This document shows, one piece after another, positions 10,965 through 58,438 of a DNA stretch of 64,000 nt. Below the pieces are notes generated by a model. The model was not told the DNA's origin. It saw only the letters and a program-made list of their open reading frames with translations, and did no database searches. The translations under genes and the position numbers were made by a program. Within the stretch, counting starts at the first letter, position 1. The number at the start of each line of letters is the position of its first letter. This stretch comes from Lophium mytilinum (taxonomy: Eukaryota), in contig MU004194.1 in assembly GCA_010093605.1 (NCBI GenBank), positions 192,156-256,155 of the forward strand. The letters are read 5' to 3'.

Positions 10965-11041
10965 ATCAAGCCGTAGAATCTTGCAAGAAGGCCTTCAATC
11001 GCTTCCCACTTCCTCAAAAAGTCAATCCCGCAGTGTTAATA

Positions 11042-11981
11042 ATGGCTCCCACCATATCTCTCTCGGAAGATGCCATCGACGATCTCCTCTACCTCGCCCG
11101 CGTCAACGAAACCTCAGAACTATCCTCCTACCTCTCCGAATTATGCGCCCAGCATCATGCTTCCGCAGCTAGCATACTAGAAGCGGCAGTGGATGAGGCA
11201 TCTGGGAACACATCACTACACTACGCAGCTGCCAATGGCCATCTAGGTAATTTATTCTCCTTTTGTTACATTGTCACACATCGGATCGAACTCCAACTTC
11301 GGGTTTATAGACATGCTGGGTAGCCATTGTTATCACAGTTGGGAAGGCTTCAATATACTTCCAAGATACCAAAAGAGACACGTTCCGTCCATTGGCAACG
11401 CCTGTAAAATCGCTGCGCTGTATTGCCTCTCAATTGGGACGATAATACGTTTTTCCAACCTCTTTTGAAGCACTAGGATAGTAGCAGAAGAGCGTGCACA
11501 GACGTCTGACGAAACTCTTTCACTTTCCATATTCCGACCTGCAAGATGTGTCTGAGTGGCAATGGACTGACACTGCACTACACCAGATACCCTCAAAGTC
11601 CTCACTACATCCGAGTCTCCTGCTGCTGCCCCGGCCAAGGAAGGCACAAAACCAACCCCACCAAACCTCAACTCCCCCAATGCTGCTGGAAACACAGCCC
11701 TCCACTGGGCCGCGCTGAACGGACATCTTGAGTGCGTCAAGCACCTAGTAGCCCTCGGCGCGGACGTCAGCGTGCTCAACAAAGCCGGTCACGACGCGAT
11801 TTTCGAAGCTGAGCTGAACGATAAAGAAGACGTAGTAGCGTGGTTGCTCGTGGAAGGAGAGGGACTCGAGGAGGGCCTGGGAGGTGAGGAGAAAGACGAG
11901 AACACCGAAGAAGCTGTAGAAGAGGTCAACAAGAAGCTCGGTGGGGTGGAGGTCAAAGACGGGGAAAAGCTTGGTGGATGA
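11042..11981 (+). CDS. YAR1: Ankyrin-repeat protein Yar1 (Rps3 chaperone); 2 exons (11042-11246, 11587-11981)
   Basis: IDDLLYLAR N-terminus; ankyrin repeats GNTSLHYAAANGH and GNTALHWAALNGHLECVKHLV; NKAGHDAIFEAE; acidic tail. Confidence 0.9.
11300..11520 (+). ncRNA. Candidate intronic structured RNA (possible H/ACA snoRNA) in the YAR1 intron; boundaries uncertain
   Basis: 340-nt intron with nested stems spanning 11370-11467, an ANANNA-like motif near 11366-11376 and an ACA near 11498; no C-box TGATGA. Confidence 0.35.
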
Positions 11982-12199
11982 GGTGACGTGGAAGCGAACT
12001 GGATCTTTGTTGATGCCGTCAATGCATTTGATTTCTATGGCGAGCGAGTCGGACTACGGGATGAAACGTGGGAAGTGAGTCGATACACGAGGTGCTCAGT
12101 AAAGATGTGAGATTGTCTCCTGGACGTTTCCTCGATTGTTGCTGACCACGGCGACCGATCAGATGATTTCTATGGAGCCTAGGCCTGTACAAGGCTGCG

Positions 12200-55978: not shown

Positions 55979-58438
55979 TCAGCAAAGAGGGAGGAGATGT
56001 CGCCAGACCGGGCCCCGTCTCCTGCACCCGCCAACTCGTAGCAATGAAGCGGGCGTCGCGCGGGCGTCCTCAGCAGTCGAGACGGCGGCAGGCGGCGGTC
56101 TCAATGGTATCGTAGCCGGGGTGCGGCGTGGAGGAGAAGAAAAATGCGCTCTTGGATTTCGTTTGGGGGGTCAGGGTTTCCGAGGGCGCCCAGCTTCGAA
56201 GTTATCCGCCTGTGACAATTTCGCTAGCAGCCACAATGGGCAACGGGGCAGGCAGGCGATGGGTGCTGATAGCCACACGGCGATGCGGCTAGGGAGACTT
56301 CAGGAATAGGGGCGGTTGAGCTTTACGTGCAGGAGAGTCAGTCCAGCGGCGGCGGAAATGCTGCCAAGTGTCCGCTATAAGCTGAAACAGACGCCGGCGA
56401 TCTTCCTCAGCATCCGGGCCTCTCACGGCACAGGCATAGACGACCTGGCTGGCACGCAGACTCGGTCGCTGGGCCTCACCTTGCAACACAAAGCCATTTT
56501 TAGAAGGCCTCTCCCGGTTGCACCACCACAGCAGCCGGATACGGGCGCTGTCAGCAAGGGCGGCGACCGCGAGAGGCGACAGACAGCTATCGCCATGTGC
56601 GCAGGGGTCCAGCATTCGCGGTATGCCTCCATGTGCTTAGCGTGGTGGGAGCAATTCACGGCCGCATCTTCACATCGTGTTGTACGGCGATGGTGTCATT
56701 ATTGCCGCTTCTGCTATACAGTTACAGCTACTTGCAGCACGCCCATCAAATCAAGACGCCTTCTATTGACAGGCCTGAGGCTCTTTTCGAAGGACAAGCG
56801 CAACATCCTGCCCTTGCTCGCTCACCCGCCCGCCTCCCGCCCTCTGGTGGAACCTGCATATGGTGGAAAGGGATCTTCGTCACAGTTCCATCCGTCTTTT
56901 GCGGTGGGAGTGGCTTTGTCTGGCAGCGATACGACGAATTGAACGCGCATGGGTGCGGAAGGGGGACAAAGAGACGTAGCACAGCAAGCATCACATAGGC
57001 CTGGTCGGCCAGAAGAGGTCACCATGGTCCAGTTCCAGACAACTTGAATTGACATTGCATAACATTTCCAAATTGATCCACCTCTTGCTCGCCCGTGGGT
57101 CCTTGTGTAACACTAGACAAGCACGTCCGTTCGCGTGTCTCCGATGATATGGCTGGATTGACTACAAACAACGTATCCGTTTCGCCAGGAAAGTGCGCAG
57201 AACCACTCTATGATCAGATCAGTACGGTCCGTGAAATTTCCATCGTGACAGTGAAGCCGTAAGTAATGCTCAGAAAAGCCGGGTTTAGTCATGCCCGCCG
57301 CCGGCTGAAGGTCCGCACAGCCCCAAGACGGAACCATACAGCCCCTAGCTCGAAGACCGCAATGACATTCAGAAGAACAGCAATCGAAGAGAGCTGTCTT
57401 CCGTACAACTCCACAACTCGTCCTTCCAGCTGAAGCCAGTAGAGTGCGGGAGGGCGGCCTGGCGGGGAGGGCGTCATTGAATGGATAGACTAAGATTTCA
57501 TCATGGCGTAGAGATTGAAGAAAATAGTAATGCTTACCCATACTGTGTCTATGCGATCCAACTGCGATGAGCATCGTAGCCTACTAAAGTTCCACATGTT
57601 AGCATCTGCGCTGACTGACCGCGTGGAACAAGAAGTTGAGTATTGTATCTCCGTAATCAGACAAATTGGTAAGTTGGTATGTGTTTCCTCAAGGTTGTTC
57701 AGTAGCAGAACTGAAATAATACACTCATCATATAGGAGTAGGTCAAACGACGAAAACGAGGAAAGTCTGGCGCGTACCTTGTGTGAGAGAGATCTTGGTC
57801 AGACGAGGTCTATCAATTAGCATCAGGTGGTAGTCAGCGCGTCTACAGCTTGGTCGCCGATGGCAAGGCCGCTCATTATTCAGCATGGCTCGTTGCTCTA
57901 GGTGTGCCTTCCGCGCCACAGCATCATAAGCGGGTGAGCTGGTGAGCGAGTGTGTGCAATGTCGTCGCGAAGAGCGAATCATCTCGAAACGCCGCAGAGA
58001 TTCTCCTAGAGCGGCAACGCGTTAGCTGAGATCTGCAGGAGACATCATACTAAGAGTGGCTTGTAGAGGTATGTTCAGATGGTAGTGCATGTTGTTCAAT
58101 GGCTCAGGAGTCGCCGGAACTGGTTGGATAGGATTTCTTCATGAAAACTCAGATGCGAGGGGGGAGACAGCAGCACACTTACAAATATACAGCGACGCCC
58201 CAGATCCCTCATGGGATCTAGGACTGGAGGGTGCGGCAACCATGGAAGGGTTGTGCGCACCGGGAAGGTTGAGCTGGAGATGGATGGTGGAGGGTGGAAG
58301 AGAAGCTCGATGTCCCGGGAGAAAAGAGGTGTGGAAGATGACTTAGCGCGCCAAGATTTTCCGGAGCTCGGGCCTCAACTCCTCCATTTTCAATTCGCGA
58401 TCAATTTCATGATATCACTTGCTACACATACAGCAGCA

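Follow-up and report, generated by a model that had tools for sequence, protein, structure and literature searches.

A long intron with two 3′ splice sites in a YAR1-like gene of Lophium mytilinum

One donor is spliced to either of two acceptors in the YAR1-like gene of Lophium mytilinum. The 340-nt intron at this locus is best explained, with a probability of about 0.7, as a plain spliceosomal intron that was lengthened in this lineage at an old position and in which two 3′ splice sites compete. The locus would then be ordinary biology, a case in which alternative 3′ splice sites are used and one of the choices leads to a premature stop. All positions are those of the window, the whole 64-kb stretch of DNA that was analysed.

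The YAR1-like gene and its two splice products

Exon 1 of the gene (11042..11246, forward strand) begins with the ATG at 11042 and ends in phase 1, after ...AANGHL and one further G; it was delimited from the sequence and is covered over 11007-11246 by an RNA contig (X3 record 1). Exon 2 (11587..11981, forward strand), which is closed by the TGA stop at 11979-81, is supported by the sequence, by an RNA contig and by P0001. This database protein of 199 aa, found with the exon 2 translation, is 100% identical to the product of the major splice. It was deposited under the source name 'ankyrin [Lophium mytilinum]', and YAR1 is the NCBI name of two of its relatives. Pfam analysis of the 199-aa product gave Ank and Ank_2 matches (ankyrin repeats), and, in a comparison with solved structures, yeast Yar1 (4bsz_B, 202 aa) was matched collinearly with an E-value of 1.2e-20 (41-155 against residues 44-162). 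The protein thereby fits the description of a Yar1 as a protein of about 200 aa with two ankyrin repeats and an acidic tail, collinear with the yeast protein. In view of the relatives named YAR1, the ankyrin matches and the collinear alignment, 'YAR1-like' is a reasonable label for the gene. Yar1 is an ankyrin-repeat chaperone of the ribosomal protein uS3.

Upstream of the gene lie a CACGTG at 10874-79 and AAAAAATTT at 10940-48; the latter is similar to the RRPE motif found in promoters of ribosome-biogenesis genes. Transcription may start about 35 nt upstream of the ATG, since the exon 1 contig of the RNA begins at 11007 with an adapter-like loose end. On the minus strand, antisense to the border of the intron and exon 2, a stop-free frame of 151 codons (11333-11788) is probably a chance opening opposite a coding region.

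The long intron (11247..11586, forward strand; 340 nt, phase 1, GTAATT...CAG) is real. Its flanking exons are directly joined (11246>11587) in an X3 contig with a word depth of 859.3, and the same 340-nt joint is also present in X4, from a relative about 90% identical. X3 matches the window with zero mismatches; since its contigs are spliced and an adapter-like loose end is present, X3 is taken as RNA. The intron has GT at 11247 and AG at 11585-86, so that both terminal signals of a GT-AG spliceosomal intron are found together with removal in RNA. An intron at exactly these coordinates had been proposed in the preliminary description of this DNA, and it is borne out by the GT and AG ends, by the RNA joint and by P0001, which equals the product of that splice. 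A sequence of the CTRAC branch-site type is present within the usual 10-40 nt ahead of the acceptor: ACTGAC at 11566..11571 (forward strand), whose A (11570) precedes the AG by 16 nt, would serve the distal acceptor. In X4-X6 (three runs of one study, compared over 10977-12100 of the window) the transcripts are about 90% identical and have the same exon junction. Their contigs are all spliced or exonic, intron sequence being absent from them. The organism from which they come is a nearer relative than any metagenome locus found.

A second joint, 11246>11311, is carried by a 333-nt X3 contig with a depth of 110.6. It removes a short intron of 64 nt (11247..11310, forward strand) that has GT..AG ends and shares its donor with the major intron. 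This contig runs unbroken from 11311 through 11586 into exon 2, and X3 record 3 is continuous over 11308-11614; a segment of 276 nt (11311..11586, forward strand) is therefore retained in the minor isoform. The inner acceptor is TTTATAG at 11304..11310 (forward strand), seen in the sequence and in the RNA joint, as had been anticipated for a TTTATAG near 11310. Ahead of it, CTCCAAC at 11291..11297 (forward strand), whose A (11296) precedes the AG by 14 nt, may act as branch site, although it is off consensus in having a C at the T position of CTRAC. A DNA variant lacking the 64 nt is unlikely as the source of the short joint, because the ends are exactly GT..AG and the donor is common to both joints.

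Once 11247-11310 is removed, a TGA at 11466..11468 (forward strand) falls in frame, in agreement with the extension and premature stop predicted earlier. The product of the minor isoform would begin with 68 aa of Yar1 and the conserved Asp and continue for 51 unrelated residues up to the TGA; Pfam analysis of the extension peptide gave 0 matches. Thus both features of an alternative 3′ splice site are present, viz. a second RNA junction from the same donor and a premature in-frame stop. The minor isoform cannot give a functional protein, and its transcript is unproductive. A long stretch lies downstream of the stop, and the isoform is therefore likely to be a target of nonsense-mediated decay (NMD).

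The X3 depth in the bin inside the short intron is 5.4. Together, the depths of 859.3, 110.6 and 5.4 amount to about 975, and the exon 1 contig has a similar depth of 1031; the proximal acceptor is thus used in roughly a tenth of transcripts or junctions, a ratio for which assembled-contig depths from one RNA run of Lophium mytilinum are a poor measure. About one-tenth is high for pure noise. If part of the minor isoform is removed by NMD, the true use of the proximal site would be higher still, and there would be scope for regulation.

According to the preferred explanation, the one donor at 11247 faces two pairs of branch site and acceptor. The distal pair, ACTGAC with the CAG ending at 11586, would be chosen about nine times in ten and yield the 199-aa Yar1-like chaperone. 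The proximal pair, CCAAC with the TTTATAG ending at 11310, would be chosen about once in ten and lies at the distance usual for the short intron in other fungi; this choice would keep the 276 nt and bring in the TGA after 52 extra codons. The relative strength of the branch sites may set the ratio, the consensus ACTGAC making the distal site the main one. The proximal site may be a leftover, or a chance site at the usual short-intron distance, and the minor isoform an unregulated by-product that would decay by NMD.

Age and length of the intron at this position

A profile built from 29 Yar1-like proteins led to 80 metagenome loci, 35 of which contain both flanking protein motifs. A donor follows directly after the GH-x codon plus one base in 21 of these 35 loci, as G/GT or A/GT (the slash marking the exon border), that is, at the same phase-1 position as here, and the remaining 14 read straight through. 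Four of the 21 loci (L005, L023, L027 and L052) were dropped because their flanking bases equal those of L004, L001, L026 and L022, respectively, and 17 were examined. With acceptors picked by frame, protein alignment and a branch-like motif, without RNA support, the intron measures 51-96 nt in 15 of the 17 loci, 118-157 nt in L022 and 273 nt in L073. Most of the 17 orthologous introns have a motif of the ACTGAC class ahead of their acceptor. No DNA similarity was detected between the intron and the rest of the window or the 80 loci (best E-value 0.74), and an Rfam search of 18 orthologous loci gave 0 matches.

The loci compared are distant (about 45-68% protein identity); they therefore show that the position is old and the intron usually short, while covariation is beyond their reach. 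Judged from these loci, the intron position is old in fungi and its length is lineage-specific. The word 'oversized', used of the intron in the preliminary description, is justified when the introns that other fungi have at this position are taken as the standard, since 15 of 17 are at most 96 nt long. The same description had named short or unconserved orthologous introns as evidence against a snoRNA, and the orthologous introns are indeed short and unrelated.

Intron lengths within the window itself were less informative. A consensus-intron pattern had 38 matches, with 7 in the 40-60 nt class against 2.0 expected, a weak excess, and none in excess in the longer classes. Bridging of open reading frames gave 16 candidates of 51-567 nt, an estimate too noisy for use as most join chance frames; the sole credible ones are the two (51 and 55 nt) that join frames of at least 150 codons on both sides. 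A literature search on Lophium mytilinum and introns found no intron statistics in the titles and the opening parts of the abstracts.

The longest of the orthologous introns, at L073:2700-2972 on a distant fungal metagenome contig, occupies the same phase-1 position with its 273 nt. It is not similar to the intron of the window, gave no match in Rfam and lacks a credible C/D pair. Long introns have therefore arisen at this site more than once. The intron of L022 likewise gave no C/D pair of note and no Rfam match.

Folding of the intron and search for a small RNA

The nested complementary words reported earlier were verified, namely CAAAAGAG at 11370-77 with CTCTTTTG at 11460-67, ACGT at 11380-83 with 11447-50, and CGTCC at 11386-90 with GGACG at 11437-41. 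All the words lie where they had been placed except CAGAAGAG, the proposed alternative partner of 11460-67; it exists, and is located at 11485-92, one base away from the estimate of about 11484-91. The nested hairpin (11370..11467, forward strand) is thus present in the sequence, with a stability at chance level. Folding of 11365-11472 gave -23.6 kcal/mol (z -1.61), which was matched by 13 of 200 shuffles. For the whole intron, folding of the forward strand gave -76.1 kcal/mol, compared with -80.1 on average for shuffles (z +0.65; 71 of 100 shuffles as good), and the minus strand has a z of +1.28. When 68 sliding windows of 80 and 110 nt on both strands were scanned, the same hairpin came out best with a z of -1.64 and no other window fell below -1; with this number of windows, such a value is no more than multiple testing would yield. 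When 11440-11586 is folded, 11460-67 takes up its alternative pairing with 11485-92. Both the minimum-energy fold and the centroid fold pair the 5′ end of the intron with the region ahead of the branch site. A zipper of this kind between the two intron ends was rejected, the best duplex (-29.5 kcal/mol) being equalled by 199 of 1000 shuffles. The intron has no excess of RNA structure, and its description as 'structured' could not be upheld, since the whole intron, the hairpin and the scanned windows fold no better than shuffles.

A permissive Rfam search of 11150-11700 on both strands gave 0 matches at E<=10. At gathering scores, the sole match in the whole window was an snR61 homologue (57654-57736, minus strand, 58.2 bits), and in permissive mode an snR55-like RNA was matched below threshold at 58073-58146 (35.2 bits, E 0.0014). 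Recovery of these two RNAs indicates that the Rfam method works in this genome.

The surrounding region, 57350-58150 on the minus strand, resembles a snoRNA host locus. The snR61 homologue there is flanked by a GT at about 57776 and by GCTAAC...TTTAG at about 57583, in an intron of about 190 nt. More C-box/D-box pairs were noticed by eye at about 57927/57800 and about 57505/57370. The order of snR55 followed by snR61 is that of the yeast snR57-snR55-snR61 cluster.

A scan of the YAR1 intron for box C/D snoRNAs found no C/D pair with an end stem. The sole C-box-like word is TGACGA at 11507, with one mismatch; D boxes lie 45-60 nt off, and the end stems of these candidates reach -0.5 and -1.6 kcal/mol against -5.1 for the snR61 control, which the scan recovered. 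The host intron of snR61 resembles the YAR1 intron in being longer than usual, but in the snR61 homologue the C and D boxes are exact, an end stem is present and the Rfam score is 58.2, whereas the YAR1 intron shows none of these features. A box C/D snoRNA was accordingly rejected on the one-mismatch C box, the missing end stem and the lack of an Rfam match.

The scan for H/ACA snoRNAs drew a single hairpin-ANANNA-hairpin-ACA layout in the intron, at 11411-11585, with AGAAGA at 11486 as H box and the ACA at 11580. Here the likeness to H/ACA snoRNAs ends. The two hairpins are weak (-14.2 and -16.5 kcal/mol), and the layout includes the branch site and stops one base short of the 3′ splice site. 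At least one layout was obtained in 28 of 100 shuffles, and one as stable in 7 of 100. The H/ACA candidate, at chance level, incompatible in location with the branch site and without an Rfam family, is not supported. H/ACA snoRNAs diverge fast and can be missed by covariance models. Still, the H/ACA snoRNA suggested in the preliminary description finds no backing in the Rfam search, in the chance-level layout or in the short and unrelated orthologous introns.

Related systems, alternative explanations and significance

The locus is most like fungal unproductive alternative 3′ splicing, in which one donor meets two acceptors and the minor product retains part of the intron and is cut short by an early stop. 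Such use of 3′ splice sites in fungi is often coupled to NMD. A short intron within a longer one also recalls stwintrons, spliceosomal twin introns in which a splice signal of the outer intron is restored once the inner one has been removed. At the YAR1 locus the junction left after loss of the 64 nt reads CTAG/ACATG. As no GT donor is rebuilt there, a stwintron was rejected; the short splice is a dead end and not the first step of nested splicing.

Introner-like elements are introns created at new positions, with many near-identical copies per genome. The YAR1 intron resembles them in being longer than regular introns, but differs in its old position (21 of 35 loci) and in the lack of a second copy in the 64-kb window or the 80 loci; on these two grounds the intron does not fit this type of element. 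Introner-like elements occur in Dothideomycetes (PMC4457414), the same fungal class. A related proposal concerns the history of the intron and is compatible with the two competing acceptors: an ancestral intron of about 64 nt, ending in TTTATAG, might have been extended at its 3′ edge by foreign or mobile DNA of about 276 nt, such as an introner-like or another repeat element, which brought a stronger branch site and acceptor. The proximal acceptor does lie at the distance usual for this position (51-96 nt in 15 of 17 loci). Both acceptors rebuild the conserved Asp codon (G+AC and G+AT), which fits, and does not prove, that the proximal site is ancestral with about 276 nt added behind it. Since no second copy was seen in the 64-kb window or the 80 loci, and the intron is not unusually stable in folding, unlike introner-like elements, which are said to fold stably, such an insertion is conceivable but unlikely.

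Two further explanations would give the intron a function. In one, Yar1 output would be tuned by a shift between the distal and the proximal acceptor, by means of the hairpin 11370-11467 and its partner at 11485-92, or by a bound protein. In favour of this, the proximal junction does occur, and not rarely (110.6 against 859.3), and the alternative pairing of 11460-67 with 11485-92 is found in the fold of 11440-11586, but the hairpin lies off both acceptors and both branch sites with a stability like that of shuffles, and the intron ends pair no better than expected by chance, 199 of 1000 shuffles doing as well. Several yeast ribosomal-protein genes autoregulate through their introns; here, the intron is short in most orthologs, with no space for such a switch, and the RNA comes from one condition. 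Regulation of this kind is improbable. The unproductive splicing at about 11310 proposed in the preliminary description stands as far as the junction and the predicted stop are concerned. Nothing points to control by an RNA structure: the hairpin is off the acceptors and branch sites and its stability is at chance. Quite improbable is a more specific form, in which the expanded intron acts as a lineage-specific control and acceptor choice is set by the status of ribosome assembly (free Yar1/uS3), or by temperature acting on 11370-11467 and 11485-92. If this were true, YAR1 output would be tuned by unproductive splicing; no ribosomal-protein chaperone gene is known to use such a circuit. A literature search on YAR1, introns and snoRNAs found nothing on a YAR1 intron in the titles and first lines of the abstracts. 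In the other explanation, the intron would host a lineage-specific small RNA (an H/ACA snoRNA or another stable RNA) released after splicing. This is very improbable: the intron is long for its position, the gene belongs to ribosome biogenesis and one hairpin-AGAAGA-hairpin-ACA layout can be drawn at 11411-11585, yet that layout is weak, at chance level and spans the branch point. Moreover, there is no proper C/D pair and no similarity to other loci, and Rfam, which detected snR61 and an snR55-like RNA in the window, matched nothing in the intron at E<=10 on either strand and nothing in the 18 orthologous loci.

The preferred reading, a lengthened spliceosomal intron with two competing 3′ splice sites, has a direct consequence for annotation. 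Two transcript forms are to be recorded at this locus, and the long intron is not to be listed as a snoRNA host. The gene would provide a small and clean case in which an old short intron has grown and an acceptor at the old size is still used at a low rate, and it may be of some use in work on how introns evolve and splice sites compete in filamentous fungi. Should the two forms prove to be made in a regulated ratio, a ribosomal-protein chaperone would be linked to splicing-based control.
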